Positions 440-23,417 of a stretch of DNA of 64,000 nucleotides are shown here, one piece after another. The stretch lies in contig JBDNYM010000006.1 of assembly GCA_047722305.1 (NCBI GenBank), positions 213-64,212 of the forward strand. The letters run 5' to 3'. The DNA comes from Pseudoclavibacter sp. (lineage in GTDB: Bacteria > Actinomycetota > Actinomycetes > Actinomycetales > Microbacteriaceae). Made by a program: the position numbers and the translations under genes. Numbering within the stretch: the stretch's first letter is position 1; each line of letters begins with the position of its first letter. The notes beneath the pieces were generated by a model. The model was given only the letters and a program-made list of their open reading frames with translations. It was not told where the DNA came from and searched no databases.

Positions 440-1519
440 ATGAAGCTCGCCGCGGTTCGGAGCATCGGGACTGCCCGCGGGTGGCAGACCGAGGCCGACG
501 CCGCGGATTTCGAGCAAGAAATCATCGACCAGTTCGCGCTCGCGATGGCCGCTGCCGGGCTCAGCGATGGATACATCTCGCAGTGCCGTTCGGCGGTGTT
601 CGAGTTCCGCCACCACTTCGGGTTACCGCTCTGGCAGGCGAAGCCAGCCGATGCGGATGCCTACCTCGCGGGTCTGCGCCGGGCGGGACTCGCCGCCTCG
701 ACGCGGGCGAATCGGGCTGGTGCAATCGCGCAGTTCTACGACTTCACGATCGCCCGCTTCCAGGCCGACATCAATGCGCTGACAGACTTCGTGATCGAAC
801 AGCCCGTCGACGAGTTCAACCGGCAGTCAGGGTCGTCGCTGGGTAAGATCCGGGTTCCGCCATCTGACGTAGAAGTCGAAAAGCTGTTCACCTCCTGGGG
901 TGCCTCGTTGGAGAGCGAGCGTCGCTACTTGCCGGCGGCCCGGAACTACTTCGCCGCGTCACTGTGGCGCCGTGTCGGGATCCGCATCACCGAGAGCACG
1001 ATGCTCGACTTGCGTGACTGGCGCCCGGACCTCGGTTCGCTGGGAAAGTTGCACGTCCGCTTCGGGAAAGGATCGCGGGGGCGCGGTTCCAAGCAGCGCC
1101 TCGTGCCAGCGATCAACGGGACTGATCGCCTGATCGATTGGTGGCTGGGTGACGTGCGGCATCGATTCGGCGATGACTGGGAGAACCCGGATGCCCCGAT
1201 GATTCCGTCCGAGCGGTTCGATTCCGAACTCGCGCGGTGCTGCCGCGCGAGCGACGATGTCCTGCGCCGCGGCCTTCGGCAGGCAACAATCCGTTTCCTT
1301 CCAGCTTGGGACGGCCGGATGACCCCGCACGTGCTCCGTCACTACTGCGCGTCGTCGCTGTATCTCGCGGGCATGGATCTGAAGGCGTTGCAGGAACTTC
1401 TCGGGCACCAGTGGCTCTCGACCACAACGCAATATATCCACGTCTCGGATGGGCACGTCGAGGAGTCATGGATGAACGCGAACCGGAGACTTGAAGACCG
1501 ATTTGAGGAGATGGGCTGA
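440..1519 (+). CDS. Tyrosine recombinase / phage-type integrase.
   Basis: C-terminal HVLRHYCASSLYLAGMDLKALQELLGHQWLSTTTQYIH matches the HxxR ... GH ... Y catalytic region. There is also an N-terminal SAM-like core-binding region. Confidence 0.9.
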   Translation: MKLAAVRSIGTARGWQTEADAADFEQEIIDQFALAMAAAGLSDGYISQCRSAVFEFRHHFGLPLWQAKPADADAYLAGLRRAGLAASTRANRAGAIAQFYDFTIARFQADINALTDFVIEQPVDEFNRQSGSSLGKIRVPPSDVEVEKLFTSWGASLESERRYLPAARNYFAASLWRRVGIRITESTMLDLRDWRPDLGSLGKLHVRFGKGSRGRGSKQRLVPAINGTDRLIDWWLGDVRHRFGDDWENPDAPMIPSERFDSELARCCRASDDVLRRGLRQATIRFLPAWDGRMTPHVLRHYCASSLYLAGMDLKALQELLGHQWLSTTTQYIHVSDGHVEESWMNANRRLEDRFEEMG

Positions 1520-1523
1520 CGCG

Positions 1524-1850
1524 ATGAAATGGAACCTCCGAGTGCAGGCCGCTGAACGCGGGATCTGGAAGTCCGCCGAGCTGCGACGGATGCTCGCGGA
1601 CGCGGGACTCGAGATCAGTCTGGGGAAGATGTCGGCCCTCTGGACCGGTACCCCGACCACGATCCGGTTGGACGATCTCGATGTCTTCTGCCACGTTCTC
1701 GGCTGCCAACCCACCGACCTCCTCGTGCCCGAACCTGACAAAGTCGCTGCGCGGAAACAGCAGCCCACCGATAAGGGCGCGGTGAACGACGCACCGGGCG
1801 TGGTGAAGCCTCGTTTCGGGCCGAACGACCGGCCAGCGCCACCGGTATGA
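1524..1850 (+). CDS. XRE (Cro/C1-type) helix-turn-helix protein.
   Basis: MKWNLRVQAAERGIWKSAELRRMLADAGLEISLGKMSALWTG...LDDLDVFCHVLGCQPTDLL. The ATG at 1524 is 5 nt after the integrase stop, and its own stop overlaps the next start (ATGA). Confidence 0.8.
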   Translation: MKWNLRVQAAERGIWKSAELRRMLADAGLEISLGKMSALWTGTPTTIRLDDLDVFCHVLGCQPTDLLVPEPDKVAARKQQPTDKGAVNDAPGVVKPRFGPNDRPAPPV

Positions 1851-3595
1851 GTCCCGCCCGCGGCCGGGGCGGGCCGCTCAGCCCGCCCTTGGCCTGCACC
1901 GCGTGCGGGGTCAATCCGGCCGCGTGGCTCACGCCCCGAGTCGACTACTGCTACGACTGCCTCCCTGGCGGCCCATTCACGCCACCGCCCTGCCGGAAGT
2001 GCGGGTCAGCGAGCTACTACAGCCAGGGGCTCTGCGCGCACTGCCATCCCGGCAGCCCGGGTTTCGTCGGCTCCTGCCGAGACTGCCTCGCCTACGGCGT
2101 CTATCGGCAGCACAACTGGCGTTGCTGGAAGTGCCGATGGTGGTTCCAGCACTACCCCCAAGGTGAATGCTCATCCTGTCACCGCACGGTCACGATCGGC
2201 GAGCAGGACTACTGCCGGCTCTGCCTGGAGACCGCCCGCTACCACCAACAGCCCGGCGAACCACTCGATCTCGGCGCTGCACAGAAGTGGGGACAGCAGT
2301 TGTTCTTCGCATCGATGAACGACCCTCGCCGGCCTGCCGCGCTCCGCACGCGGCCAGCGATGGGCGTGGCGGAGGCGCTACTCCTCATCAACGCGCCGCC
2401 ACCGCCCGAGAGCACCCAGCAGGTCCTCTTCCACGTCGACCCTGACCCCGAGCTGCTGCGGCAGCGAGCGAACGAGCTTGCCCGCCGCGACATCACCTCC
2501 CGAACCGAGCACTTCCTCACCGCCCGCGCCAGCGAGTACGCCTGGAGCAAACGGCAAACGAATCAGGTTCGGCGCACCCTCAAGGTCCTGCAACTCGTGT
2601 TCCCCGAAGCCAACCTCCAGTTCCGAGCGTCCGACATCCTCGCGCTACGCAGCTACAACGACCACAACGTCCGCTCCACGATCGAAATCCTCGAAGACGC
2701 CGGCCTCCTCATCGATGACCGCGTACCCACCTTCGACCGGCTCTTCGCGCGCAAGACGGTGGATATCCCCGACCCGATGCGCACCCAACTCGAACTCTGG
2801 CGCACCACCATGGTGAACGGGTCACCGACGCCACCGCGCAGGCAACCCCGCGAAGCATCAACAGTCAAGGCCCAGATGTACGGCATCCTCCCGGCCGTGA
2901 CGACTTGGGTCGAGAACGGGCACACGAGCTTCGCCGAGATCAGCACCGATGACATTCTCGCCGTGCTGCCCGACGAGCCATCGCCACGGCACCTCATGCT
3001 GCTCGGCCTACGCACCCTGTTCAGCATCCTGCACGGGCAGAAGCAGATCTTCCACGACCCCACGAAGCGAATCCCGCTGCGACCGGCGAAGCGCAACGCA
3101 CCGCTCCCGATGCACCCGAACGCGATCCGCGACGCCCTCACGAGTCCCGACCCGGCAGTCGCGTTCGCCGTCTCCCTCGTCGCGTTCCATGCGCTCACGA
3201 CCCGGCAAGTCCAGCATCTGCTCCTGACCGACGTCGCCGACGGGCGCCTCACCATGCCCGACGGCCGCATCATCCCGCTCGCGAAACCCGTGCTCGTGCG
3301 CCTGACGGCGTGGCTCGACCACCGCACCCGAAGATGGCCCGAGACGCAGAATCCGTATCTGCTGGTCACCCAGCAGACCGGACCCAGGCTCACCCCGCCC
3401 GGCCGCAACTTCCCCTGGAAGAAGGCCGGAATCTCCGCCCAGGCGCTCCGTACCGACCGCATCCTCTATGAGGTTGAGCAGACCGGCGGAGACGTCCGTC
3501 GGGTCTGCGACCTATTCGGCATCACCATCGACACCGCCCTCCACTACGCCCGCACCGTCACAGACCCGGCCAACACCAAGGTCGACAGCGTGTAG
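1847..3595 (+). CDS. Large Cys-rich (multi CxxC Zn-ribbon) protein with a degenerate tyrosine-recombinase-like C-terminal domain.
   Basis: The N-terminal 130 aa carry at least 8 CxxC pairs. The C-terminus ([15 protein letters not shown] ... [10 protein letters not shown] ... [12 protein letters not shown]) resembles the R...xxLR...Y layout. Confidence 0.7.
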
Positions 3596-3672
3596 CCGCC
3601 GCTGAAGGTGAACCTTCGGCAAACACCGGCCCAGGTGCAGCCCATCGACTTGCCGACTGCTTTGATAGGCGT

Positions 3673-3684
3673 CAATATAGATGC
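3673..3684 (+). promoter_or_regulatory. -10-like box (GTCAATAT) placed for a leaderless trxB transcript.
   Basis: CAATAT lies at 3673-3678 and 6 nt separate it from the ATG at 3685. There is no Shine-Dalgarno. The same GTCAATAT box is seen at 11631. Confidence 0.4.
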
Positions 3685-4659
3685 ATGTCTATTCAAGAGG
3701 TCGAGTTGGTCATCGTCGGGTCTGGTCCCGCGGGGTACACCGCGGCGGTCTATGCCGCCCGTGCGGGTCTCGCTCCGGTCGTGATCGCGGGCTCGGTGAC
3801 CGCGGGCGGTGCGCTGATGACGACGACCGAGGTGGAGAACTTCCCGGGCTTCGTCGACGGCGTGCAGGGGCCAGAGCTGATGGAGTCGATGCGGGCACAG
3901 GCGGAGCGGTTCGGCGCCGAGATCGTCACCGACGACGCGACCCGACTTGATCTGGACGGCGACGTGAAGATCATCGAGACCGGCGCCGGGGTGACGTACC
4001 GGGCGCGGGCGGTGATCCTGACGATGGGTTCCGCGTACCGCAAGCTCGGCCTTCCCGAGGAGGAGCGTCTGTCCGGGCACGGAGTGTCCTGGTGCGCGAC
4101 CTGCGACGGCTTCTTCTTCCGCGAGCAGGAGATCGTCGTGGTCGGCGGCGGGGACTCCGCGATGGAGGAGGCCCTGTTCCTCACCCGGTTCGCATCGAAA
4201 GTGACCGTGGTGCACCGCCGGGACGAGTTCCGGGCGTCGAGGATCATGGCACAGCGCGTGCTGGACGATCCGAAGATCGAGGTCGCCTGGAACAGCGAGG
4301 TCGCCGCGATCCTCGGCGACGAGCAGGTCACCGGGCTCACGTTGCGCGACACGATCACCGGGGCTGAGCGAACGCTCGACGCGACGGGGGTGTTCGTCGC
4401 GATCGGGCACGACCCGCGCTCCGAGCTCGTGACCGGGCAGGCCGACACCGATGCGGACGGGTACGTGCGGGTCGCGCACCCGTCGACGCGGACAAACCTG
4501 GCTGGGGTGTTCGCAGCCGGGGACCTCGTCGACCACACATACCGGCAGGCGATCACCGCCGCAGGCACCGGTTGCGCGGCCGCGCAGGACGCCCAGCACT
4601 ACCTGTCGAACCTCGCACCCGCCGCCGTTTCCGCACTGGTTCTGGAGGTCTCCGCATGA
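3685..4659 (+). CDS. trxB: Thioredoxin reductase (ars-linked, arsT-like).
   Basis: [20 protein letters not shown] motif, redox-active CATCDG, and [17 protein letters not shown] motif. Confidence 0.93.
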
Positions 4660-4982
4660 GCACCGTCACCCCTGTCACCGATGCCACCTTCCAGGCGGAG
4701 GTGCTCGAGTCCGAGCTACCCGTCGTGGTCGACATCTGGGCGACCTGGTGCGGCCCGTGCAGGGCGATCGCCCCGATCCTGGACCAGCTCGCCAGCGAGT
4801 ACGCGGGCCGGGTAAAGTTCGTGAAGGTCGACGCCGACCAGAACCCCGAGACTGTGACCGCGGCCGGCGTGACCTCGATCCCGACCCTCGGCTTCTACCG
4901 GAACGGGGAACGGGTAGACGTGCTGATCGGCGCGCACCCGAAACCCGTCTACACCGCGAAGATCGAGGAACTGCTCGCATGA
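4656..4982 (+). CDS. trxA: Thioredoxin (ars-linked, arsX-like).
   Basis: WCGPC active site in [44 protein letters not shown] overlap with trxB. Confidence 0.93.
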
Positions 4983-6067
4983 CCGACACCCTGACCCGCA
5001 CCGCCCCGAAACGGCTCTCCACACTCGACAAGTGGCTGCCGCTCTGGATCGGCCTCGCCATGGTCGCAGGCCTCCTGCTCGGCCGTTTCGTGCCCGCACT
5101 CTCAGACGCGCTCTCTGCGATGGAGGTCGGCGGGATCTCGATCCCGATCGGCCTGGGCCTGCTGGTGATGATGTACCCGGTGCTCGCGAAGGTCCGCTAC
5201 GACAAGGTCGCCGCCGTCACGGGTGACAAGAAGCTCCTCGTCTCCTCGCTCGTGCTGAACTGGCTGGTAGGACCTGCGGTGATGTTCGCGCTCGCGTGGA
5301 TCTTCCTGCCGGATCTGCCCGAGTACCGGACCGGGCTGATCATCGTGGGGCTGGCCCGATGCATCGCGATGGTCGTGATCTGGAACGATCTCGCGTGCGG
5401 CGACCGGGAGGCGACCGCGGTGCTGGTCGCGATCAACTCCGTGTTCCAGGTTGTCATGTTCTCGGTGCTGGGCTGGTTCTACCTGACCGTACTGCCGGAC
5501 TGGCTCGGCTTGGACGTGCAGGGGCTGGAGATCTCGGTCTGGCAGATTGCCTTGAACGTGCTCGTGTTCCTCGGGATCCCGCTCGTCGCGGGCTTCGCGT
5601 CCCGGTTCATCGGCGAGAAGCGCAAGGGGCGCGACTGGTACGAGGAGAAGTTCCTCCCGAAGATCGGACCGTGGGCGCTCTACGGGCTGCTGTTCACGAT
5701 CGTGCTGCTGTTCGCCCTGCAGGGCAAGCAGGTCACGTCGCATCCGCTCGACGTCGCCAGGATCGCGCTGCCGCTGCTGGTCTACTTCGCGCTGATGTGG
5801 TTCGCCGGCATCCTACTCGGCAAGACCCTCAGCCTGGGCTACGCGCGGTCCACGACGCTCGCATTCACCGCAGCGGGCAACAACTTCGAGCTCGCCATCG
5901 CGGTCGCGATCGGCACCTTCGGCGCGGCATCCGGCCAGGCCTTGGCCGGGGTCGTCGGCCCGCTCATCGAGGTCCCCGTGCTCGTGGGCCTGGTCTACGT
6001 CTCGCTCTGGGCCGCGAAGGCCTGGTTCCACACCGACCCCTACACCACCGAATCGAGGACGTCATGA
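4979..6067 (+). CDS. acr3: ACR3-family arsenite efflux permease.
   Basis: [24 protein letters not shown]... is multi-TM, with the R-C-I-A-M-V motif region (GLARCIAMVVIWN). The ATG at 4979 overlaps the trxA stop. The upstream 176 aa of ORF 4451-6067 are read-through, not coding. Confidence 0.9.
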   Translation: MTDTLTRTAPKRLSTLDKWLPLWIGLAMVAGLLLGRFVPALSDALSAMEVGGISIPIGLGLLVMMYPVLAKVRYDKVAAVTGDKKLLVSSLVLNWLVGPAVMFALAWIFLPDLPEYRTGLIIVGLARCIAMVVIWNDLACGDREATAVLVAINSVFQVVMFSVLGWFYLTVLPDWLGLDVQGLEISVWQIALNVLVFLGIPLVAGFASRFIGEKRKGRDWYEEKFLPKIGPWALYGLLFTIVLLFALQGKQVTSHPLDVARIALPLLVYFALMWFAGILLGKTLSLGYARSTTLAFTAAGNNFELAIAVAIGTFGAASGQALAGVVGPLIEVPVLVGLVYVSLWAAKAWFHTDPYTTESRTS

Positions 6068-7068
6068 CCGATACCGCCGTCATCGCCGACGCCGACGCGT
6101 GCGCGCCGTCCACGGGGCACGCTATCGGGACCGAGGCCGCGACGACCGTGGCCGGGGCGCTGAAGGCGCTCGCTGACCCGCTGCGGCTGCGGATGCTCTC
6201 GGCGATCGCGACCGACCCGCGCGGCGAGTCCTGCGTGTGCGATCTCGCGGACCTCGCCGAGGTGTCCCAGCCGACCGTTTCGCACCACCTGAAGGTGCTG
6301 AAGGAGACCGGGATGCTTCTGTCCGAGCGGCGCGGCACATGGGTGTATTACCGCGTCGCCCCGGGCAAGCAGCGCGCCGTCGCGGCCCTCCTCGACGCGT
6401 TCGCTCCGGCCGCGGCCGCAGCGGACGAGCCCGAAGACACCGCAGCCCGGGCCGAGGCCTTGCAGCAGATGGACGCACGGGTGACCCGTCTCGCGGAGGA
6501 GCTCGCGGACGAGCTGACCGGGCTGAATCGGGACCTCGTGATCGCGATCGTGCGCGAGTCCTACGCCGGGCTGGTGCGTTCGGCGAAGCTGACGGGGCAC
6601 ATGATCCCGCTGACCGAGCGGTTCGCCCGGCAGCGCCTGGCCGATCTGACCCGTGATCGGTCGTCCGGGGTGCCGCAGGTGCTGTTCGTCTGCGTGCAGA
6701 ACGCGGGCCGCTCGCAGCTCGCAGCCGCGATCGTCAACCAGCTCGCCGATGGCCGGGTTATCGCCCGCTCTGCCGGCTCCACTCCTGCGTCGGACGTGCA
6801 CCCGCACGTGCGCTCGCTGCTCACCGAGATCGAGGGCGAGCAGGAGGCCGAGACGGCGTTCCCGAAGCCCCTCACCGACGACGCCGTGCGCGCGGCCGAC
6901 GTGGTGGTCACGATGGGCTGCGGCGACGTCTGCCCGATCATCCCCGGCGTCCGCTACGAAGACTGGGCCGTCGGAGACCCAGCGCTGGCATCGCCCGAGG
7001 GCGTCGCCGCGATCCGCGACGACATCGAGGGCCGCGTCCGCGGCCTCCTCGCCACCCTCACCGACTGA
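6064..7068 (+). CDS. ArsR metalloregulator fused to an LMW-PTP-type arsenate reductase (ArsRC fusion).
   Basis: The N-terminal part has ESCVCDLADLAEVSQPTVSHHLKVLKETGML (ArsR HTH with a CVC site). The C-terminal part has VLFVCVQNAGRSQLAA ... GCGDVCP (LMW-PTP ArsC). Confidence 0.88.
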   Translation: MTDTAVIADADACAPSTGHAIGTEAATTVAGALKALADPLRLRMLSAIATDPRGESCVCDLADLAEVSQPTVSHHLKVLKETGMLLSERRGTWVYYRVAPGKQRAVAALLDAFAPAAAAADEPEDTAARAEALQQMDARVTRLAEELADELTGLNRDLVIAIVRESYAGLVRSAKLTGHMIPLTERFARQRLADLTRDRSSGVPQVLFVCVQNAGRSQLAAAIVNQLADGRVIARSAGSTPASDVHPHVRSLLTEIEGEQEAETAFPKPLTDDAVRAADVVVTMGCGDVCPIIPGVRYEDWAVGDPALASPEGVAAIRDDIEGRVRGLLATLTD

Positions 7069-7083
7069 AAGAAGCGAACAACC

Positions 7084-7488
7084 ATGACCGACCAGAAGCC
7101 TTCCGTCCTCTTCGTCTGCGTCCACAACGCCGGCCGTTCCCAGATGGCCGCCGGCTATCTCCGCGAGTTGGCGGGCGACCGCGTCGAGGTCCGCTCCGCC
7201 GGGTCCATGCCCGCCGACCAGATCAACCCGGTCGCCGTCGAGGCGATGCGCGAGGAGGGCATCGACATCACCGCCGAACAGCCCAAGGTGCTCACCACCG
7301 AGGCCGTGCAGGCCTCCGACGTGGTGATCACGATGGGTTGCGGCGACGCTTGCCCGTTCTTCCCGGGCAAGCGGTACGAGGACTGGAAGCTCGACGACCC
7401 GGCGGGGCAGGGCATCGATGCGGTGCGCCCGATTCGCGACGACATCAAGGCCCGCGTCGAGACCCTCCTCGCCGAACTGCTCGTCTGA
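7084..7488 (+). CDS. arsC: Arsenate reductase, LMW-PTP / thioredoxin-coupled type.
   Basis: VLFVCVHNAGRSQMAAGYL P-loop (CX5R) and the downstream GCGDACP cysteines. Confidence 0.92.
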   Translation: MTDQKPSVLFVCVHNAGRSQMAAGYLRELAGDRVEVRSAGSMPADQINPVAVEAMREEGIDITAEQPKVLTTEAVQASDVVITMGCGDACPFFPGKRYEDWKLDDPAGQGIDAVRPIRDDIKARVETLLAELLV

Positions 7489-7503
7489 GGAGCTGCGAGC
7501 AGC

Positions 7504-7535
7504 GGAGGGGCAGAGGCCAATGGCCCTACCCCTCC
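7504..7535. terminator. Imperfect GC-rich hairpin between convergent operons.
   Basis: GGAGGGG...GGCCAATGGCC...CCCCTCC followed by GGTGTGTTT. It lies between the arsC stop (7488) and the stop of the minus-strand gene at 7624. Confidence 0.45.
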
Positions 7536-7623
7536 GGTGTGTTTCCGGGTCCGCGAACTTTACGGCGAACACCGTTGTGCCGTGAGGTGTGACCCAGTGA
7601 TCGCGTCACCGGTCGTTCTCGCT

Positions 7624-7932
7624 CTACCGGGATGCGCCTCGCATCGCTGCTTCGATCTGCTCCTGCGTGGGCGCTCCGGCGTACCCGCTTTCCGTCGCGT
7701 AGACCCGGCACGCCAGCGAGCGAACCGGGGCCGTCGGGAACAGGTCGACGTCGTCGAGGAGGATCGTGGGCGAGCCTCCGAACTGGGTGCTCGCCGCCTC
7801 GGCCTCGGTTCGGATCGTCACCAGCTCGACAGGAACGGCCCCGAGCCCGAGAGCATCCAGCGCCGCGCGTGCGTTGGCTTCGGCGATTGCCGTGTTCGGG
7901 CAGTCGACGATGTGCAGCAGTTCGACCTTCAT
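7624..7932 (-). CDS. Small thioredoxin-fold protein, last gene of the cmtR operon.
   Basis: 102 aa with MKVELLHIVDCPNT... at the N-terminus, a glutaredoxin/thioredoxin-like beta-alpha start with a DCP motif. 4-nt overlap with the ATPase stop. Confidence 0.65.
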   Translation of the reverse strand: MKVELLHIVDCPNTAIAEANARAALDALGLGAVPVELVTIRTEAEAASTQFGGSPTILLDDVDLFPTAPVRSLACRVYATESGYAGAPTQEQIEAAMRGASR

Positions 7933-9845
7933 GCGGTCGGCTCCTTCCGAGTCCGGGCGGCGCGCAGTCCGTTGAGGATGACGACGACCTCGGCGATCTC
8001 GTGCACCAGGACCACGGCGGCGAGGCCCAGGACGCCGAACAGGGCCAGCGGGAGCAGCGCGGTGATGATCAGCAGCGACAGGATGATGTTCTGGTTGATG
8101 ATGTGCCGCCCCCGACGGGCGTGGTCGAACGCGCGCGGGAGAAGCCGCAGGTCGTGACCGGTGAAGGCCACGTCGGCCGACTCGATCGCGGCGTCGGAGC
8201 CCGTCGCGCCCATCGCGATACCGATGTCCGCGGCGGCCAGCGCAGGGGCGTCGTTGATGCCGTCGCCGATCATCGCGACCGGCCCCTTCGCACCGAACTC
8301 TGCGATCGCGGCGGCCTTGTCTTCGGGGCGCAGCTCGGCGCGGACGTCATCGATCCCTGCTTGCGCAGCGAGGGCGCGGGCGGTGCGGGCGTTGTCGCCG
8401 GTGAGCATGGTCACCCCGATGCCCTGGGTCGCGAGGGTGCGCACGACCTCGGGGACCTCCGGTCGCAGCTCGTCGCGGACGCCGATCGCGGCGACCGGGA
8501 CGCCGTCGCGGTGGACGATCACGACCGTCATGCCTTGCTCCTCCAGCCCCGCGACCCGGTCGCCGAGCGTCCCGGCGTGCAGCCAGCGGGGACTGCCGAC
8601 CGTGATCCGCGCGCCGTCGAGCTCGCCATCGATGCCGTGACCGGCCTGCTCGGTCACGCCCTCCGCCGCAGGGGCATCCGGCACAGCGGCGGTGATCGCG
8701 GCCGCGAGCGGGTGGGTGCTGTGCTGCTCCAACGCGGCCGCCCACGCCAGCGCCTCCGCCTCGCTCACACCGTCTACGGTGAGGACGGCGGCGACGGCGG
8801 GCTCGTTGCGGGTGAGGGTGCCGGTCTTGTCGACGGCGACGTGACGGATCACGCCGAACCGCTCGAACGCGGCACCCGACTTGATGATCACGCCGAACTT
8901 GCTCGCCGAGCCGATCGCGGCCACCACAGTCAGCGGGACCGAGATCGCCAACGCGCACGGCGACGCCGCCACCAGCACCACGAGAGCGCGGGTGATCCAC
9001 AGCTCCGGGTCGCCGAACAGCGACCCGATGATCGCGACCAGGGCGGCGAGGATCAGCACGCCCGGGACGAGGGGGCGGGCGATGCGGTCGGCGAGACGGG
9101 CGCGGTCGCCCTTCTCGGCCTGAGCCTTCTCCACCAGGTCGACGATCGTGGTCAGCGAGTTGTCGGTGCCGGCCGCGGTCGTCTCGACCTCCAGCGCCCC
9201 AGCGGTGTTGATCGCACCCGCAGACACCGCGTCGCCGGGTTCGACCTCGACCGGGATCGATTCCCCGGTGATCGCGGAGGTGTCCAGGCTGGAGCGCCCC
9301 GTGCGGACGATGCCGTCGGTCGCGATCCGCTCACCCGGCCGCACCAGCATCAGCTGGCCGACGGCGAGGTCCTTCGCGGCGACTTCGACCGATGCTCCGT
9401 CGCGGCGGATGGTCGCGGTCTCGGGGACGAGCTTGAGCAGTGCCCGGAGCCCGCCGCGGGCGCGGTCCATGGCTTTGTCTTCCAGTGCCTCGGCGATCGA
9501 GTACAGGAACGCCAGGGCGGCGGCCTCCTCGACGTACCCGAGGATCACTGCGCCGACGGCGCTGATCGTCATCAGCAGGCCGATGCCGAGCTTGCCCTTG
9601 AACAGCTTCCGGATCGCGCCGGGGGTGAACGTCGACGCACCCAGCAGCAGACCGATCCAGAACGCCACCAGTGCCGGGATCTCCATCCCGGACCACTCCA
9701 GGGCCAGGCCGGTGAGGAACGCGATGCCGGAGAAGACCGGGACCATGATCCCGCGGTCCCGCCACCAGGGGCGTTCCGCCGCCTCAGCCTCTTCGCTGAT
9801 GGTGGTCTCGGGCTCGTCGTGCTCGCAGCCGCACGCCGCGCTCAC
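7929..9845 (-). CDS. Heavy-metal P1B-type ATPase with an SPC transmembrane motif and no HMA domain (Cd/Co/Zn-type).
   Basis: DKTGTLT, GDGINDAPAL, TGES, and LVAASPCALAISVP in the TM segment. 638 aa. Confidence 0.92.
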   Translation of the reverse strand: MSAACGCEHDEPETTISEEAEAAERPWWRDRGIMVPVFSGIAFLTGLALEWSGMEIPALVAFWIGLLLGASTFTPGAIRKLFKGKLGIGLLMTISAVGAVILGYVEEAAALAFLYSIAEALEDKAMDRARGGLRALLKLVPETATIRRDGASVEVAAKDLAVGQLMLVRPGERIATDGIVRTGRSSLDTSAITGESIPVEVEPGDAVSAGAINTAGALEVETTAAGTDNSLTTIVDLVEKAQAEKGDRARLADRIARPLVPGVLILAALVAIIGSLFGDPELWITRALVVLVAASPCALAISVPLTVVAAIGSASKFGVIIKSGAAFERFGVIRHVAVDKTGTLTRNEPAVAAVLTVDGVSEAEALAWAAALEQHSTHPLAAAITAAVPDAPAAEGVTEQAGHGIDGELDGARITVGSPRWLHAGTLGDRVAGLEEQGMTVVIVHRDGVPVAAIGVRDELRPEVPEVVRTLATQGIGVTMLTGDNARTARALAAQAGIDDVRAELRPEDKAAAIAEFGAKGPVAMIGDGINDAPALAAADIGIAMGATGSDAAIESADVAFTGHDLRLLPRAFDHARRGRHIINQNIILSLLIITALLPLALFGVLGLAAVVLVHEIAEVVVILNGLRAARTRKEPTA

Positions 9846-10201
9846 TCACCCGCTCCCATCCCGCAGCAGCCCGGCACCGTGCACGAAGAGTCCACGCAGG
9901 GCGCGTGCTCGTCGACCGCGAGCGTTACGTCCACCAACGCGGTCAGTGCCGCCGCCAGGTGCGGGTCCGCGATCTCGTACCGCGTCTGCCGCCCTTCGGG
10001 CTCCGCGACCACGATCCCGCAGTCGCGCAAGCAGGTCAGGTGGTTCGACACGTTTGAACGCGTCAGCTCCAGCTCGCGCGAGAGCACGGCGGGGTAGCTC
10101 GGGCCGCCGAGCAGGGTCATCAGGATGCGGGAGCGCGTCGGGTCCGCCATCGCCCGGCCGAGCCGGTTCATGACGTCGAGGCGTGAAGCAATGGTCAGCA
10201 T
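9842..10201 (-). CDS. cmtR: ArsR/SmtB-family Cd/Pb sensor, CmtR-like.
   Basis: LGRAMADPTRSRILMTLL...LTRSNVSNHLTCLRDCGIVVAEPEGRQTRYEI has the CxxxC of CmtR in the alphaR helix, plus a Cys-rich tail (CVDSSCTVPGCCG). The ATG at 10201 was chosen over the ORF-track start at 10429. Confidence 0.85.
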   Translation of the reverse strand: MLTIASRLDVMNRLGRAMADPTRSRILMTLLGGPSYPAVLSRELELTRSNVSNHLTCLRDCGIVVAEPEGRQTRYEIADPHLAAALTALVDVTLAVDEHAPCVDSSCTVPGCCGMGAGE

Positions 10202-10213
10202 GCACTGATCATA
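10202..10213 (-). promoter_or_regulatory. -10 box TATGAT placed for a leaderless cmtR transcript.
   Basis: The minus strand reads ...CTTTACGTCAGTCGTTGCTGTATGATCAGTGC-ATG. There are 6 nt between the hexamer and the ATG, and no SD. Confidence 0.45.
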
Positions 10214-10250
10214 CAGCAACGACTGACGTAAAGTGTGTGGGCGGCGAGTC

Positions 10251-11570: not shown

Positions 11571-11613
11571 ACCAACCTCCACACATTGATGTTCTTCGAT
11601 ATGAAGAGCCTGC

Positions 11614-11638
11614 TCGATGCATCGACATCTGTCAATAT
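11614..11638. promoter_or_regulatory. Perfect 12-bp palindrome TCGATGCATCGA plus a GTCAATAT box in the divergent oxidoreductase/arsR promoter region.
   Basis: Read directly from the sequence: palindrome at 11614-11625, GTCAATAT at 11631-11638. This is a candidate ArsR operator overlapping the promoter. Confidence 0.4.
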
Positions 11639-12010
11639 GTGGGGCAGAATGGGGGCATGGCTGCTCTTCCCGTGACGATCGACGCGACACCTGCGGAGGC
11701 GGCGTGCTGCGCCCCTGCGGCCGACGCGGTGGTCGATGACGCGACCGCGCATCAGCTCGCGAAGGTGTTCAAGGCGCTCGGAGACCCGAACCGGGTCAAA
11801 CTGTTCTCCTTGATCACCGCGAGCGCGAGCGGAGAGATGTGCGTGTGCGATCTCACCGACCCCGTCGGGTTGTCGCAGCCGACCGTGTCGCATCACATGA
11901 AGCTCCTTGTTGAGGCTGGGCTCGTCACCCGCGAGCAGCGCGGCAAGTGGGCGTACTACCAGCCCACGACCGGCACCCTCGCCGACGCAGCACGGGCGTT
12001 CACAGCCTGA
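11639..12010 (+). CDS. arsR: ArsR-family transcriptional repressor.
   Basis: FKALGDPNRVKLFSLI...EMCVCDLTDPVGLSQPTVSHHMKLLVEAGLV. The likely true start is the ATG at 11657 (MAALPV...). Confidence 0.88.
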   Translation: MGQNGGMAALPVTIDATPAEAACCAPAADAVVDDATAHQLAKVFKALGDPNRVKLFSLITASASGEMCVCDLTDPVGLSQPTVSHHMKLLVEAGLVTREQRGKWAYYQPTTGTLADAARAFTA

Positions 12011-12618: not shown

Positions 12619-12631
12619 ACCTGCGGGTTTC

Positions 12632-19560: not shown

Positions 19561-19654
19561 GCACCAACCGGGGATCGCAAGTATTCGAAGCGTTCGAGAT
19601 CCATGCTGGCGAGGTGCGCAGGCAGGACCGCCGCCGTCGGGCTAGCGTTGAAGT

Positions 19655-20101
19655 GTGGACGCATGGACTGACGAGCCGGGTGTGGTGGTGTTGCCCGACG
19701 GGCGACGCATCCGCGGCGTCGGCGTGCGCCGGCCGCGCGGCGATGTGCCTGCCCCCGATTTCGCGGTCTATCTACTTGGCCGTGACCCGGCGCCTGGTCC
19801 TTGGCCTCATCGCTGGGTGCGGTGGCGAGACTTCCGGCTGCCGGACTCGACCGCCGACGCGACGACGGCGCTGCGTGAGGCGTGGGAACGTGCCGGTGAG
19901 GAGCGAGTCGAGATCGGGTGTGGCGGCGGCATCGGGCGGACCGGGACGGCTTTGGCGCTGCTGGCAACGATGAGCGGTGTCGCGCAAGAAGACGCGGTGG
20001 CGTGGGTCCGTTCCCACTATCACCGGCGAGCTGTCGAGACGGGCAGGCAACGACGCTGGGTAGAGCAGACCGCGACCTTGCTTCAGACGGAGCGGGAGTG
20101 A
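19655..20101 (+). CDS. Cys-based protein phosphatase-like protein (CX5R).
   Basis: VEIGCGGGIGRTGTALALL fits the C-x5-R-(S/T) P-loop of PTP/DSP enzymes. 148 aa. Confidence 0.55.
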   Translation: MDAWTDEPGVVVLPDGRRIRGVGVRRPRGDVPAPDFAVYLLGRDPAPGPWPHRWVRWRDFRLPDSTADATTALREAWERAGEERVEIGCGGGIGRTGTALALLATMSGVAQEDAVAWVRSHYHRRAVETGRQRRWVEQTATLLQTERE

Positions 20102-20110
20102 CCTTGGTCG

Positions 20111-21768
20111 TCAGCGCGGGGTGGCGGCGTAGGTGTTCCAGGCTGAGCCGGTGAGTTCGGCCCAGCGGGTCGCGGTGGTGATGTGGATGCCGATGAGCGA
20201 GGCGAACACGGCGGGCGGGGTCGTTGAGGCCAGGTGCAGCAGCGCGGTGCTCCGGCTGGCGCGGGTGAAGATGCCGAGCTGGTTCATTCGCCGCATGAGT
20301 GAAGCGGGATGAAGGTGGGTGCCCGCGTTCTTGCCGGTGAACAGCCACCGGGCATCAGCCAGGATGCTCGCAGTGCCGAACGGCTTGACGACCGGTAGCG
20401 CGGTGACCAGCCCGTCCAGAGGCGGGATCAGCAGCACCGGCTCGGGCCCGAGGGCCAGGTAGGTGCCGGTGTCGCGGACCTTGATGTCGTTGGTGGTGAG
20501 GGCGGCGATCTTCGCGATGAGTTGGGCGTAGAGCAGGATCAGGCAGGCGGCGGCGCGATCCTCAATGCTGGCGCTGTCGGGGTAGTGCAGGAGTTGACGG
20601 GCGAGCGCAAGCTGGTCCTCGGGGTCGATGTCGTGGCGAGGGTCTTTCTGGCGGGTGGGCTCGGGCAGTCGGTGAGGTGTCCGCCGCGAGAGAGCCAGCG
20701 CAGGAAAGCCAAGCGGCGGCTCCGGTCGGTGCTGAGCCAGGCACCTACCTGGTCCTGCGGGCAGTCATCGAGAGTGTGGCCGTGGACGACGATGTGGTCG
20801 AGGAAGGCGTGAGCAGTCTGGATCTCGCTGCGGCAGCGTGCGGCGACATGAGCGGTGAGATGTCCGTGGCGGTTGGTCTTGGCGCGGCCGACGACGTGCC
20901 AGCGGGCGTAGCGGGACAGCACGCCGCGTAGCTCGGGGTCGGTGATGTCGGCGCCGGCTTCGGCGGCGTGGCGGTGTAGCCGGGCGGCGTTCTCGTCCCG
21001 GGGCGGCAACGCGCCGGAGGCGACGAGCATCGCGCGCAGGTAGGTCACCGAGAACACTTGCGGGCGGGCATCGAGAGCGTCATGTGACAGGTCGAGTCGG
21101 CCTTGAGCGATGTCGGTGAGCAGGTGCAGGCTCGGCAAGTCGTGCCAGTTGTTCAGCAGCGAGCGGGGTTGGCGTAGCTCGGTCAGTGCATCGCGGACGG
21201 GTTTCAGCTCGGGTCGGATCGTGCTGTCCGGGCCGGTGAGCGCGGCGTCGATCTGCTGGGTGGCTTGGCAGGCGAAGCAACGGGGCCGGCCGTGGTTGGT
21301 GGTTCGTCGGCCGAGTGACCGCTGGCCGCAGATGGAGCAGTCGATGACCGGCGCTTGGTAGCAGGTCGGGCAGACGTCCGGGCTCGTGGCGGTCGCTTTC
21401 AACGCGACTCGCTTGAGCCGGCCGCAGACGCCGCAGGGCCGACGCGGGTGCCGGTAGCAGCGAACGCAGAGATTCCGCGATCCATCGGACTTACCGCCAG
21501 CTCGGGTGGCGAGTGGGCCGATAGTTCCGCATCCATCGCAAGCATCCTCGCTGGCGCGGTTTCGGGCGTAGCAGGTGGTGCAGATAGCGCCGCCGTCGCT
21601 GGTGCGGGCGTTGACTCGCCGCTGCCTGCCGCAGCCGGTGCAGGTCTCCTGGGGTGAGCGGCGGGCGCGGCAAGCCCGACACTCGCCCCGGTTGAGTGCG
21701 TGGTTCCAGCGCAGGTTCCTCATCCGTCCGCAGCGGAAACACTCACCGTGGACGATCGTGCTCGCCAT
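20111..21768 (-). pseudogene. Zn-ribbon / recombinase-like large protein, homologue of 1847-3595, disrupted by a 1-nt frameshift near 20640-20660.
   Basis: The N-terminal 409 aa are in ORF 20539-22173, starting from MASTIVHGECFRCGRM at 21768. My translation shows the homologous continuation ...RHDIDPEDQLALARQLLHYPDSASIEDRAAACLILLYAQLIAKIAALTTNDIKV... in another frame, joining ORF 20111-20437. Confidence 0.7.
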
Positions 21769-21776
21769 GCAGCCGG

Positions 21777-22124
21777 TCAGTCCCCAGCAGGCTTGATGAC
21801 TGCGCGAGTTGGACGGTTCCGGCTGGGCTTGGACGGCGTGCTGGTGCCGGTGGTGCCGGTCTTGCGTCCGCGCCGCGAGCTGGTGGCGACGTAGGGCTCG
21901 ATCAGGTCGTTGGGGGTGACGTCGAAGATGTCGCAGAGCGCGGCGAGCAGCCGCATGTTCAACCGCTCCGGCTCGCCGACCACGATCCGGTAGACCTGGG
22001 TCGAGGTCATCACCACGCCCCGGTCGGCCAGCAGCGGCACCAGTTCGGTGGTGGCGAACATGGCGTGCTCGTTCATGATCTTGCGCAGGTGCCAGTGGTA
22101 GGCGACGGTCTTGCTCATCGGCAT
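21777..22124 (-). CDS. XRE-family helix-turn-helix protein.
   Basis: MPMSKTVAYHWHLRKIMNEHAMFATTELVPLLADRGVVMTSTQVYRIVVGEPERLNMRLLAALCDIFDVTPNDLI. The start at 22124 overlaps the integrase stop. Confidence 0.8.
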   Translation of the reverse strand: MPMSKTVAYHWHLRKIMNEHAMFATTELVPLLADRGVVMTSTQVYRIVVGEPERLNMRLLAALCDIFDVTPNDLIEPYVATSSRRGRKTGTTGTSTPSKPSRNRPTRAVIKPAGD

Positions 22125-23281
22125 GATCCTTCCTCGGTTGCGGTCGGTGGGGTGAACGCGGCGTCCAGGGCACGGCGCAGGGTGCGGTTGCGGTAGTCGC
22201 CGGAGACGCCGGTGTAGAGGGCTGTGGTCGATCCCCACCGGTGCCCGACCTGCTGCTGCACGAACAGCGGGTCGAAGCCGTCCTCGATCAGATGGGTCAC
22301 ATAGGAGTGCCGCAGGCAGTGCGGGTGCAGCGCCGGGTCGAAGCCGAGGTCGTCGCGGTACTCGGCGAACCGCATCCTGATGTAGCTGCCCGTGATCCTG
22401 GATTGTCGTTCGGTCGGCCACAGCATCCCGGCGCCTGCCGTGTCGAACAGCGGCAGCACGTCGGTGACGTATTCCTCGATCACTGGGCGGGTCCAGTCGA
22501 ACACCGCCAGCACCGCCCGCCGACGGGGCGGGGAGCCTTTGCTGGCCTTGCCCCAGCGGACGTTGCAGACCCCGTACCGGCCGAACTCGGTCGCGGTCGG
22601 GTTGCGGGTGAAGTCATGCACGTCGAGCATCCCGACCTCGCGGCGGCGCAGCCCGAAGGCGTAGATCATCTTGAACAGGGTCGCGTCGCGGAACACCGAC
22701 TTCCAGCCCTTCTTCCCGCGCGTGCGAGCATGGTCGACGCGATCGTCGGCGTAGTCGAAGAACGTCTGTACCTCGTCCCGCGACAGCGGCCGGACCGCCG
22801 GGCGTGCCTCGTGATCGCTGGTGTGGATCGCGGTGTTCCACTCATGGCAGACCTGCACCGGATACGTCCCGAACAGGTCCTCGCATCGCTCGATCCAGCC
22901 GTAGCGGCGGTCGGTCAGGTAGTCGCAGAACAACGCGACCGCGTTCTGATACGAGCGGATCGTGCCGTGCGAGCACGGCTTGTCGCCAGAGACCAGCTCG
23001 GTCGTCCACTCCTCGACGTCGGCGGGCGACCACTCCCACGGCAAGCTCCCGCAGAACCCCGCGAACCGGCGCACCTGCGACAAGCGCGCCCCGATCGTCT
23101 TCGCGTTCAGCATCCGCGAGGACTGCTGCGCCGACCAGCCCGTGAGCATGTCATCGAAGACCTGCTCCGCCGGACGCAACAACGCCACGTTGCCCGCCCG
23201 CAACGCCGTCACCGATCCGGGCCAGTTCCCGTCCTCGAAGTCCACCCCAACAGTCTTACATCTAATGTATGAAAAGTACAT
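22115..23281 (-). CDS. Tyrosine recombinase / integrase.
   Basis: HPHCLRHSYVTHLIEDGFDPLFVQQQVGHRWGSTTALYTGV (HxLRH ... GH ... Y). The true start may be the GVDFEDG codon near 23245, because the first 12 codons lie in AT-rich repeats. Confidence 0.9.
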   Translation of the reverse strand: MYFSYIRCKTVGVDFEDGNWPGSVTALRAGNVALLRPAEQVFDDMLTGWSAQQSSRMLNAKTIGARLSQVRRFAGFCGSLPWEWSPADVEEWTTELVSGDKPCSHGTIRSYQNAVALFCDYLTDRRYGWIERCEDLFGTYPVQVCHEWNTAIHTSDHEARPAVRPLSRDEVQTFFDYADDRVDHARTRGKKGWKSVFRDATLFKMIYAFGLRRREVGMLDVHDFTRNPTATEFGRYGVCNVRWGKASKGSPPRRRAVLAVFDWTRPVIEEYVTDVLPLFDTAGAGMLWPTERQSRITGSYIRMRFAEYRDDLGFDPALHPHCLRHSYVTHLIEDGFDPLFVQQQVGHRWGSTTALYTGVSGDYRNRTLRRALDAAFTPPTATEEGSCR

Positions 23282-23412
23282 CTAACGTAAGACTTGGTGC
23301 GTTTCCCCTGGTCAAGAGCCGGGTTCAAGACTCAGATCAGTGACCCCTGGTACCCTTGCCTGACCAGCGAATACGCACGATTCCAGCCGTCGCGGATTAC
23401 ATCTAACGTAAT
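23255..23412 (-). repeat. Three direct copies of an AT-rich 12-14-mer, (T)TACGTTAGATGTA or ACATTAGATGTA on the minus strand, at the integrase-proximal end of element 2.
   Basis: Plus-strand copies are cttacatctaatgta (about 23255-23269), gtacatctaacgtaa (about 23277-23291) and ttacatctaacgtaa (about 23398-23412). The sequence is strikingly AT-rich for this replicon. Confidence 0.6.
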
Positions 23413-23417
23413 AATTG

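Follow-up and report, generated by a model that had tools for sequence, protein, structure and literature searches.

The window, a 64,000-nucleotide stretch of a Pseudoclavibacter sp. contig (JBDNYM010000006.1), harbors two gene triplets, each encoding a tyrosine recombinase (int), an XRE protein (xre) and a large protein with CxxC pairs (large). They lie at 440-3595 on the plus strand and, inverted, at 23281-20111 on the minus strand, within a minus-strand T4SS-type transfer operon. We consider it likely that each triplet serves as the recombination module of a site-specific integrative element, that is, a tyrosine-recombinase transposon of an actinobacterial class with an int-xre-large core, cargo after large, and subfamilies that home to gene ends. 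The two triplets had been described in an earlier note made from the letters alone, and open reading frames together with PF00589 and HTH_26 matches confirmed them at these coordinates. Its placement of both precisely between backbone genes was likewise correct: the first element is flanked by an ATPase gene that stops at 12632 and by the next gene start, at 245, and the second by DUF6112 genes (18900-19557) and an M23/lytic hydrolase gene that stops at 23418. Start and stop codons overlap or nearly abut in both copies, as the note had said: the xre1 stop overlaps the large1 start, the int2 stop abuts the xre2 start, and 9 bp separate xre2 from large2. Comparison with related loci supports the view that both triplets are insertions into the transfer operon at precise gene ends.

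The features of element 1, a member of what we call family 1, are as follows.

About 269..12634, plus strand: element 1 as a whole, int-XRE-large module and ~9 kb of cargo (boundary uncertainty ~4 bp on the left, ~10 bp on the right)
272..287, plus strand: left terminal motif TGTCTCTAG and arm ACCCGCA, from end comparison of family-1 elements
360..382, plus strand: inverted half-sites upstream of int1, ATTCGTGAC (360-368) and TTCACGAAT (374-382), a candidate operator or arm-type site
440..1519, plus strand: int1, tyrosine recombinase, 359 aa (Pfam PF00589, E 2e-15)
1524..1850, plus strand: xre1, Cro/C1-type HTH protein, 108 aa (HTH_26, E 6e-15)
1847..3595, plus strand: large1, 582 aa, eight CxxC pairs followed by core-binding-like and catalytic-like tyrosine-recombinase domains (AF2 model, Foldseek)
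3609..3619, plus strand: internal copy of the right-end arm (TGAACCTTCGG), 14 bp past the large1 stop (pattern search)
3685..12618, no single strand: cargo (annotation of 84-96%-identical relatives, GNAT Pfam match, trxB ORF)
12603..12634, plus strand: right end, with palindrome TTCAGGAATCCTGAA, arm TGAACCTGCGGGT, then TTCCTA including the ATPase stop codon (12632-12634), from family-1 right-end comparison
12635..14110, minus strand: backbone VirB4/TraC-like conjugative ATPase, whose 3' end is the target of element 1 (TrwB_AAD_bind/AAA_10 matches; tblastn to plasmid 'conjugal transfer protein TraC'/ATP-binding proteins)

All three core genes of element 1 are intact. The active site of int1 is complete (R182, K210, H297, R300, H323 and Y332), and these residues are invariant in an alignment of nine integrases of int-xre-large elements. 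The xre1 start at 1524 was taken from the gene call in a 96%-identical relative (L002), the longest ORF starting at 1491. The cargo consists of ~9 kb of arsenic and heavy-metal resistance genes: trxB, trxA, an ACR3 arsenite pump, an ArsR-phosphatase fusion, ArsC and a small ORF, followed by a P-type metal ATPase (7929-9845, minus strand), ArsR, a pyridine-nucleotide disulfide oxidoreductase and a GNAT acetyltransferase ending at 12618.

Two Leucobacter loci (L034 and L035) align with the window at ~91% from 272 to 13026 and have a left flank unrelated to that of the window. Loci L028 and L030 carry a related element (96.7% identity over 7.3 kb), and because they share its sequence but differ in their left flanks, we place the left end just outside TGTCTC. 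Most family-1 elements that were read bear an (A/T)TCTCTA(G) motif at this end, with the variant TGTCTCAAC in L028 and L032; a palindrome related to the half-sites upstream of int1, GTTCACGA(A/T)TCGTGAA, lies near both ends of L032. The left arm ACCCGCA is the inverted complement of the right-end TGCGGGT. On the right, the arm GTGAACTT(G/A)CGGGG is conserved beside the ATPase gene in many family-1 loci and is followed by 6-9 variable nucleotides and then by backbone CAT(G/C)CG..GGTGTCGAA. The right end of element 1 abuts conserved C-terminal ATPase codons, where the backbone encodes FDT(T/D)xRM. In-silico removal of 269-12634 yields an ATPase ORF ending in a TGA that overlaps the ATG downstream, and the ATPase-to-next-gene junction is uninterrupted in Leifsonia, Streptomyces and Arthrobacter FB24 plasmid 1 (loci L005, L006 and FB24 plasmid 1). 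Counting against a mobile element, family 1 has short inverted arms of 7-8 bp, which would stand 18-22 bp apart in a hypothetical circle junction, more than the canonical 6-8 bp overlap region.

Element 1 might instead comprise only the 3.3-kb triplet, with the 9-kb metal-resistance block being a separate insertion or backbone DNA. Cargo-less 3.5-kb elements are indeed common, and the arm 14 bp past large1 resembles a right end; the pattern TGAACCTNCGG occurs in two places only, 3609-3619 and the true right end (expected 0.13, for a pattern chosen post hoc). We regard this narrower reading as unlikely. The outer right end at 12616-12634 has the family arm directly against the C-terminal ATPase codons, as in cargo-less copies; triplet and cargo stay together as a syntenic block in relatives from Microbacterium, Leucobacter and metagenomes; and where other members carry different cargo, it fills the corresponding slot with the same arm as its border. 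The triplet-only and whole-element readings can be reconciled if tandem integration at the right end brought in the cargo, the inner arm being a scar.

Element 2, of family 2, has the following features.

About 19574..23428, minus strand: element 2 as a whole, 3.86 kb, absent from plasmid NZ_CP072877.1
19574..19585, minus strand: int-distal terminal arm (AATACTTGCGAT in element-strand reading), inverted relative to the left arm
19655..20101, plus strand: cargo, a protein-tyrosine-phosphatase-like ORF, 148 aa (PTP-SAK and Y_phosphatase matches)
20111..21768, minus strand: large2 pseudogene, ten CxxC pairs and a C-terminal recombinase-like region (ORF frames, alignments)
21777..22121, minus strand: xre2, Cro/C1-type HTH protein, ~114 aa (HTH_26, E 4e-10)
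22115..23281, minus strand: int2, tyrosine recombinase, 388 aa (PF00589, E 2e-15)
23257..23428, minus strand: int-proximal end, with terminal AAGCAAA, the CTAGCAATTATT arm and three TTAC(G/A)TTAGATGTA 14-mers (junction alignments, motif count)

In the closest plasmid relative, Microbacterium plasmid NZ_CP072877.1, window positions 16025-19565 and 23431-31933 are contiguous (L001 24765/24773), the hydrolase/DUF6112 junction is intact and the stop/start overlap is kept. This empty site, together with the unoccupied ATPase junctions found for element 1, came from the comparison with insertion-free relatives that the earlier note had proposed, and upholds its claim that the triplets interrupt the conjugation operon. 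Family 2 occupies the same hydrolase site with differing cargo in L004, L012-L014 and L016; element 2 is 94% identical to the element in L012, and a homologue of the phosphatase-like ORF fills the same slot in L012-L014. The last codons of the hydrolase gene (K-A-N-stop) are supplied by the int-proximal end of element 2. The 14-mers at this end (23398-23411, 23277-23290 and 23257-23270) number three where 0.02 would be expected. When the right end of L016 is joined to its left end, the result is AATAATTGCTAG-AAGCAAA-CTAGCAACTATT, a 12-7-12 layout.

The large2 gene, previously taken for an intact ORF, is broken: one frame stops at 20539, the C-terminal part lies in another frame (20764-20111), and alignment to two intact homologues locates a 7-bp deletion at ~20670/20671. 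Intact homologues have 554 aa, one of them (P0121) being 90% identical. Because large2 is frameshifted, element 2 would now be defective. The int gene is frameshifted in L012-L015, and element 2 and these relatives look like decaying copies.

The eight CxxC pairs of large1 occupy residues 17-126, ahead of the tyrosine-recombinase-like domains. The AF2 model of large1 (mean pLDDT 71.7) retrieved only tyrosine recombinases as its top Foldseek matches in the PDB (XerA, E 4e-7), which supports a predicted recombinase fold for the family-1 protein. The recombinase fold suggested earlier for the large protein is thus supported for family 1 and is putative for large2, whose modeled C-terminus has low confidence and whose best match is Cre at E 0.21. 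Large1 matched no Pfam or NCBIfam family, PF00589 was matched by neither large1 nor large2, and neither large family gave a significant profile match to the integrases. The 16 cysteines, R474, R535 and Y567 of large1 are conserved in 78-80 of 80 relatives. Tyr is invariant in family 1, where Arg-I and both His are missing (the Arg-I position, aligned by eye, is T, M or S), and the family-2 alignment shows Trp in place of the nucleophile Tyr. Judged from these alignments, the active site of the large protein is incomplete, in agreement with the degenerate catalytic residues that had been suspected. That the two triplets are divergent homologues was borne out by identity for int1 and int2 (28%, E 3e-15) and for xre1 and xre2 (27%, E 2e-10), whereas large1 and large2 were not significantly similar by BLASTP (E 0.13). 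The link between the large families is drawn solely from an hhalign profile-profile match (probability 65%, E 6e-5, 281 C-terminal columns) and a protein of plasmid pA8H1 that bridges them (E 3e-45 with family 2, E 8e-6 with large1).

Family-1 relatives number 221 in species-representative genomes. An ATPase gene lies downstream of large on the opposite strand in 42 of 80 family-1 loci, namely those with an ATPase match of at least ~370 codons; the distance between the two genes is 81-196 bp in 21 loci, which have no cargo, and 0.7-8.8 kb in the 21 with cargo. Recombination genes at one end with cargo downstream, as the earlier note had described, is a layout kept across dozens of relatives.

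Such regularity would also be expected of modules resident in this class of conjugative elements and inherited with the backbone, serving either as a fixed recombinase docking site that captures cargo or as a regulatory or resolution system. In all loci with sufficient flank, family 1 is strictly tied to one backbone position, following the ATPase gene and preceding the coupling-protein region; the cargo is always in the same slot, and the arm copy directly after large1 fits cargo addition at a fixed site. We nevertheless find inheritance with the backbone quite improbable. Identity between large proteins is uncorrelated with that between adjacent ATPases (Spearman 0.07, 726 pairs), whereas it correlates with that between integrases (0.77). 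In one metagenome-assembled genome, a 3,503-bp unit is 100% identical at two loci (L069 and L070) whose adjoining ATPases are 45% identical, and conversely L047 and L088 have 97%-identical ATPases and large proteins just 48% identical. With the 3,503-bp unit taken out, L068, L069 and L070 each regain an ATGA stop/start overlap. The module is missing from many backbones, ATPase homologues being found in 666 plasmid records and large1 homologues in 124; plasmid 1 of strain FB24 is empty while its plasmids 2 and 3 are occupied. The left flank of one element is not conjugative but holds a methyltransferase gene, and one family-1 member lies in a tad pilus operon. Because element and ATPase similarity are uncorrelated and identical copies stand beside 45%-identical ATPases, these comparisons indicate that family-1 elements are mobile.

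The closest described systems come from the Antarctic Arthrobacter plasmids pA2H2, pA8H1 and pA40H2: the XER modules, reported in silico as putative integrative elements with passenger genes (Romaniuk et al. 2018, PMC6305408). They share three co-oriented core genes (tyrosine recombinase, XRE regulator and a long second 'recombinase'), 4-14 passenger genes after the core, and insertion between two genes of an operon (PMC6305408). The bridging protein above is the large protein of pA8H1 (828 aa), which is homologous to family 2, only weakly to large1, and ends, like family 2, in ...RW rather than ...Y. XER modules differ in targeting the umuD/umuC junction instead of conjugation genes and in a longer large protein with more zinc ribbons; their short in-silico description covers neither ends, target logic nor fold (PMC6305408). 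The SE (IntA-Tfp-IntB-Srap), which are strand-biased circularizing integrative elements, and the GInts (GinA-D) also have a recombination module at one end, cargo downstream, translationally coupled genes, non-identical junction bases and a large (>550 aa) tyrosine-recombinase-fold protein without the RHRY residues (Tfp/GinC). Compared by description, however, they encode Srap/GinD together with two or three catalytic recombinases, have neither an XRE gene nor a zinc-ribbon array, and are reported only from Gamma/Betaproteobacteria (PMC10214605, PMC5385486). With classical Int/Xis elements (ICE, IME, prophages) the window elements share a single catalytic tyrosine integrase and 3'-end insertion with displaced codons and stop replaced. 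Unlike these, they lack a Xis-type gene, have an obligatory large recombinase-fold partner, and target operons of other mobile elements rather than tRNA or housekeeping genes.

Membership in the Tn554 family, with a TnpA-like int, a TnpB-like large and XRE in place of TnpC, is very improbable: protein sizes are similar (~360 aa, ~580 aa and a small third protein), and Tn554 and its actinobacterial relatives are likewise tyrosine-recombinase transposons with one ~360-400-aa and one long recombinase, site-specific insertion, no target duplication and asymmetric ends (Van Houdt et al. 2012, PMC3414803), but both their proteins are canonical recombinases, their gene order is different, with tnpC after tnpB, and the large proteins lack PF00589, Arg-I, both His and, in family 2, Tyr. 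The Tn554-related pair on FB24 plasmid 1 consists of two bona fide PF00589 recombinases with no XRE gene between them, has no detectable similarity to large1, large2 or the XER-module large protein, and shares just box-II similarity with the integrases (E 1e-6 at best), so that the likeness to Tn554 raised earlier stands as an analogy only.

For site-specific integrative elements with an int-xre-large core, we propose that insertion is directed, in each subfamily, to a single short conserved sequence at the end of a gene within a conjugative-element operon. The target would be the stop-codon region of the VirB4-like ATPase gene for family 1 and the 3' end of the M23/lytic hydrolase gene, just ahead of the DUF6112 gene, for family 2; for a third subfamily, the published XER modules, it would be the umuD/umuC junction. 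Int may be the sole fully competent recombinase, performing cleavage and strand exchange. The large protein, using its zinc ribbons and core-binding-like domain, may bind the target, the element ends or both, and act in the synaptic complex as a partner that is only partly catalytic or not catalytic at all. XRE may repress or time expression of the operon, and possibly bend DNA, acting through palindromes near the int promoter and the element ends. The 6-9 bp adjoining the target vary from copy to copy, and no identical repeat is shared by attL and attR, so strand exchange probably tolerates heterology, as it does in Tn916, CTnDOT, Tn554 or SE elements.

In summary, the two elements of the window match the int-xre-large type noted as XER modules in 2018 and add further members to it. 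Elements of this type are widespread in Actinobacteria, yet almost unstudied.

The region is of high GC content (65-73%), and real genes were picked out in it with a GC3 filter. The minus strand of the window carries a Gram-positive T4SS-type transfer operon and, within its span, two triplets on opposite strands, each consisting of a tyrosine recombinase gene (int), an XRE gene and a gene for a long zinc-ribbon recombinase-like protein (large).

Transfer operon, triplets and right arm of element 1 (window positions)
Start at 245, minus strand, running past the window edge: small gene of the transfer operon
440-1519, plus strand: int1 of triplet 1
1524-1850, plus strand: xre1 of triplet 1
1847-3595, plus strand: large1 of triplet 1
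12616-12628, plus strand: right arm of element 1, TGAACCTGCGGGT, a match to the family-1 arm
12632-14110, minus strand: VirB4/TraC-like ATPase of the transfer operon
Minus strand, no coordinates given: membrane-protein genes of the transfer operon
18900-19232 and 19291-19557, minus strand: two DUF6112 genes of the transfer operon
21768-20111, minus strand: large2 of triplet 2
22121-21777, minus strand: xre2 of triplet 2
23281-22115, minus strand: int2 of triplet 2
23418-25253, minus strand: M23/lytic hydrolase of the transfer operon
25774-26763, minus strand: ParB-like gene of the transfer operon

Rightward in the window lie a TrwC relaxase, an ArdC-like gene, DprA and copper-resistance genes; the DNA carrying both elements is therefore a conjugative plasmid or an ICE. 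Its nearest relatives belong to the Microbacteriaceae (Leucobacter at about 91% nucleotide identity, a Microbacterium plasmid at 84%). A second metal block (32049-37810), with a multicopper oxidase, a copper P-type ATPase bearing an HMA domain and DUF305, is situated in the backbone outside both elements. GC content is lower at 46321-49806 (59-62% vs about 69%), where an ABC-three-component (ABC-3C) conflict system is encoded by a CTD6-domain protein, the middle component MC2 and an SMC/ABC-type ATPase, and beyond this block are large ORFs without a Pfam match (51279-54149, 956 aa).

The paired inverted triplets described in the earlier note are present, far beyond chance. Both integrases match PF00589, with R, K, HxxR, H and Y invariant, and both small proteins match HTH_26. 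The claim that the two sets are divergent homologues holds directly for int1 and int2 and for xre1 and xre2, which are clearly homologous yet distant (27-28% identity). By contrast, large1 and large2 show no similarity by BLASTP and are joined only through hhalign (E 6e-5, 281 collinear C-terminal columns) and through the 828-aa large protein of plasmid pA8H1, which matches both families: it shares 28% identity over 579 columns (E 3e-45) with P0121, an intact relative 90% identical to repaired large2, and 23% identity over 287 columns (E 8e-6) with large1. The gene set of triplet 2 is as had been described, but its large gene is not intact, being divided between two frames by a 7-bp deletion at about 20670, a defect overlooked in the earlier note; intact homologues have 554 aa.

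That triplet 2 lies in an insertion was borne out by an empty site. The Microbacterium plasmid NZ_CP072877.1 has the two flanks of window 19566-23430 joined directly, with the hydrolase stop and the DUF6112 start overlapping (CACATCACCGTCAGGGCCGGTTCGTGATGG). Deletion of element 2 (19574-23428) in silico gave, in our own reading, ...HVTV-TPVGA-stop overlapping the DUF6112 ATG, with the same phase in the related loci L012 and L016; the hydrolase now takes its final three codons and its stop from the element. Family 2 was found at the same hydrolase/DUF6112 junction in four further contexts, with 4.6 kb of oxidoreductase cargo in L004, the PTP-like gene of the window in L012-L014, and an unannotated 566 bp aligning to the PTP-like gene region in L016. 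The arms of element 2 are inverted (CTAGCAA(T/C)TATT left, AATA(C/A)TTGC... right), joining the right end of L016 to its left end creates a 12-7-12 site with the spacer AAGCAAA, and TTAC(G/A)TTAGATGTA occurs in three copies at the int-proximal end only. Given that the large frame is lost in element 2 itself and int in its relatives L012-L015, this lineage looks immobilised. In L012-L014 (about 4400-5300), an opposite-strand Hypoth_Ymh-domain gene lies between the two DUF6112 genes and is absent between those of the window.

For element 1 (about 269-12634), the case for insertion made in the earlier note is upheld by distant backbones, on a Leifsonia plasmid, a Streptomyces plasmid and Arthrobacter FB24 plasmid 1, in which the small gene and the coupling protein come directly after the ATPase gene. 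Pseudonocardia pFRP1-2 and FB24 plasmid 2 carry a cargo-less family-1 triplet exactly between these genes, in the window orientation. Other copies include pTC1, with a short cargo in which a GNAT gene comes last, as in the window, a Pimelobacter plasmid with metal-resistance cargo, and pNOCA01, where the copy is inside a tad operon. Intact family-1 copies are carried by Leucobacter chromiireducens L-1, L. luti RF6 and FB24 plasmid 2. In 42 of 80 family-1 loci an ATPase gene was matched over at least about 370 codons, and in these it lies downstream on the opposite strand, separated from large by 81-196 bp in 21 loci and by 0.7-8.8 kb in the other 21. The DNA adjoining the family-1 right end is the coding sequence of the conserved ATPase C-terminus, FDT(T/D)xRM, preceded in order by the conserved element arm GTGAACTT(G/A)CGGGG and 6-9 variable bases. 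The ATPase stop (12632-12634) falls inside the right junction of element 1. The ATPase of the window now ends in ...RMI-stop, which matches the natural ...RMH-stop of an uninterrupted homologue. The left end was placed near 269-272 by two comparisons, and the family motif (A/T)TCTCTA(G) is present.

These ends became apparent only on comparing many copies, as a generic repeat search of each element did not reveal them; the 9-mer TTCACGAAT shows no enrichment across the whole window, and it is considered relevant because related elements keep it at a conserved position. Reconstruction of the reading frame works for element 1 in one of three phases and is thus weak evidence by itself, and in the related cargo-bearing locus L032 it yielded no stop. 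The predicted circle junction of element 1 would be ...CCTGAACCTGCGGGTTTCCTA joined to TCGTGTCTCTAGACCCGCA..., and the predicted empty site ...CGGATGATC joined to TTCGGTGGGCGC.... The right arm recurs at 3609-3619, 14 bp beyond large1, and this inner copy suggests that cargo came to lie outside an earlier right end, perhaps through a tandem integration in which the incoming recombination genes were afterwards lost.

Several features of the cargo and ends of element 1 were recorded in addition. Direct repeats of 123 and 59 nt (6862-7068 vs 7282-7488; 75-76% identity, spacing 420 bp) represent two paralogous coding regions for low-molecular-weight phosphatases of ArsC type. In Leucobacter relatives and the metagenome relative L002, lspA (signal peptidase II, about 570 bp) lies between a small ORF and the P-type ATPase, and it is missing from the window (7933-7943 vs 16087-16657 of the Leucobacter locus L034). 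Outside the left end, extra DNA with a DUF4145 gene is found in the Microbacterium plasmid (L001, 2528-3863) and, with more genes, in L002 (about 5700-8590), as against only about 25 bp in the window; a second hotspot may exist at this junction. L032 has a perfect 16-bp stem at 18465-18530 (GAACTCACGGGTCCAG ... CTGGACCCGTGAGTTC), just inside the right end, whose half-site CCGTGAGTT recurs at the left end and which could act as a terminator or as a palindrome bound by protein.

The position of family 1 is constant relative to the ATPase gene, as it would be if a resident module had been co-inherited with the backbone, an explanation that we consider improbable in view of five lines of evidence. 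Pairwise, the identity of large proteins is uncorrelated with that of the adjacent ATPases (Spearman 0.07), whereas large and int identities are correlated (0.77). One MAG holds two copies identical over exactly 3,503 bp, although the adjoining ATPases are 45% identical and the flanks otherwise dissimilar, and removal of this 3,503-bp unit restores ATGA stop/start overlaps at three independent sites. Conversely, ATPases that are 97% identical carry large proteins just 48% identical. In one occurrence of an element, moreover, the left flank is a methyltransferase gene. Collectively, these comparisons lead us to conclude that the elements are mobile and target-specific. Insertion is site-specific at gene ends and without target duplication, the ends are asymmetric with short inverted arms, and the core genes are tightly coupled with cargo distal to large. 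For the two-copy MAG CAWIII01, the predicted junction would be GAACCCGTCAGGGTT joined to AATCTCTATCC.

The large protein gave nothing significant in Pfam, NCBIfam or PDB sequence searches and did not match PF00589, although some members of the large families match double-zinc-ribbon Pfam families. The CxxC pairs number eight in family 1, where 78-80 of 80 sequences conserve them, and ten in family 2. An AF2 model of large1 is confident across residues ~220-570, and its 30 Foldseek matches at E<=1e-3 are exclusively tyrosine recombinases (XerA at E 4e-7, with lambda Int, IntI, XerD, XerH, Cre and Tn1549 Int among the partners), aligned over about 300 columns that cover both the core-binding and the catalytic domains. 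On this model, large1 is a member of the tyrosine-recombinase superfamily with a core-binding plus catalytic-domain fold. As neither large family gave a significant hhalign match to the element integrases, whether over the full length or with the C-terminal part alone, catalytic residues of large1 were mapped by a by-eye alignment to XerD motifs together with the fold match. In this alignment, the Arg-I column of family 1 is T, M or S and never R (Thr in large1), the HxxR equivalent is QxxR with Arg535 invariant, and the His-III position is Leu or Ile; Tyr567 is invariant. In family 2, a near-invariant Trp occupies the position of the nucleophile Tyr. The alignments of both families agree with the degenerate residues noticed earlier. 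The C-terminus of the family-2 AF2 model is of low confidence and Foldseek returned no significant match; a recombinase-like fold in this family finds support only in hhalign to family 1 and in weak PF00589 matches in 4 of 25 members. The large protein is thus a zinc-ribbon-bearing protein of recombinase fold with an incomplete active site, very probably non-catalytic in family 2 and possibly partly active in family 1.

We infer a mechanism in which Int would catalyse strand exchange, while the large protein would recognise ends and target, occupying non-cleaving positions of the synapse, and XRE would control expression and perhaps directionality. Strand exchange would tolerate non-identical overlap sequences, since the bases separating arm and target differ between otherwise similar copies.

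The elements belong to a kind already noticed and never characterised: the literature searched yielded one brief in-silico mention of the triad and no experiments. XER modules, which lie between umuD and umuC on Arthrobacter plasmids, were called possible novel integrative elements (PMC6305408), and they share with the window elements three co-oriented, closely packed genes (tyrosine recombinase, XRE and a long second recombinase-like gene), passenger genes that vary downstream of the core, and a position of the whole between two operon genes. We confirmed this layout and the homology of large in pA8H1, and a umuDC-targeting triad is also present in Brevibacterium pAP13. As the window elements lie instead at the ATPase 3' end and the hydrolase/DUF6112 junction, each subfamily appears to have a target of its own. 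In pA8H1, the XER insertion (16.6 kb) terminates beside umuC with an inverted second int and XRE pair lacking a large gene (L017, 16740-18238), an arrangement that points to the nesting or fusion of two elements at a single target.

Five groups of tyrosine-recombinase transposons are recognised (PMC10214605). SE and GInt, compared by description, encode a large recombinase-fold protein without a catalytic motif (Tfp/GinC), of which the large protein may be a functional analogue; large1 keeps an invariant Tyr. SE and GInt elements are proteobacterial and lack an XRE gene, and their four core genes include two or three for catalytic recombinases as well as Srap/GinD, as against three core genes, one canonical recombinase and an XRE gene in the actinobacterial elements described here. 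RIT elements have three tandem tyrosine recombinases and long inverted repeats, neither of which is found in the window elements. Tn554 resembles them in site-specific insertion, absence of target duplication and asymmetric ends; however, it has two catalytically competent recombinases (TnpA, TnpB) rather than a partner with an incomplete active site, and its small tnpC is downstream of tnpB, whereas the small gene here is mid-triplet and encodes HTH_26 (TnpC compared by description). The resemblance to Tn554 raised in the earlier note is an analogy, while the remainder of that interpretation is supported. The Tn554-related pair of FB24 plasmid 1 has nothing beyond a box-II motif in common with the integrases (E 1e-6 to 1e-3) and no meaningful similarity to the large proteins. 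We also considered whether the long and short recombinase transposons of Van Houdt (PMC3414803) are the same elements and rejected this, as FB24 plasmid 1 bears a true Tn554-like pair without XRE and without similarity to the large proteins. That pair (L119, 42683-46293) comprises canonical recombinases of 400 and 803 aa with overlapping genes, beside an IS256-family element, and the transfer ATPase site of the same plasmid is unoccupied.

Taken jointly, and held tentatively with the balance tipped slightly against it, our reading is that int-XRE-large elements may form a sixth, mechanistically distinct group alongside ICE/IME, Tn554, SE, GInt and RIT, combining one active recombinase with a target-reading zinc-ribbon pseudo-recombinase. 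Their subfamilies would be hitchhikers of conjugative elements that home to the final codons of conserved transfer genes (VirB4-like ATPase, cell-wall hydrolase) without inactivating them, and would be the main cargo-loading platforms, for metal resistance and more, of actinobacterial plasmids and ICEs. The triad is common: a scan of species-representative genomes yielded 221 family-1 relatives, and each plasmid query 124-257 records. Known ends and targets permit automatic annotation of genes now labelled 'hypothetical protein' or 'XerC/XerD'. Of most interest are the way in which family 1 homes to the stop codon of the conjugative ATPase, where a stretch of about 20 bp coding for the conserved C-terminus is recognised even when the ATPases are only about 45% identical, and the pseudo-recombinase partner, which together offer a simple, testable system for site choice by a tyrosine recombinase and such a partner. 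The triad delivers arsenic, cadmium, mercury-type and other cargo straight into the operons by which conjugative plasmids and ICEs transfer themselves, so that cargo and vehicle travel together.
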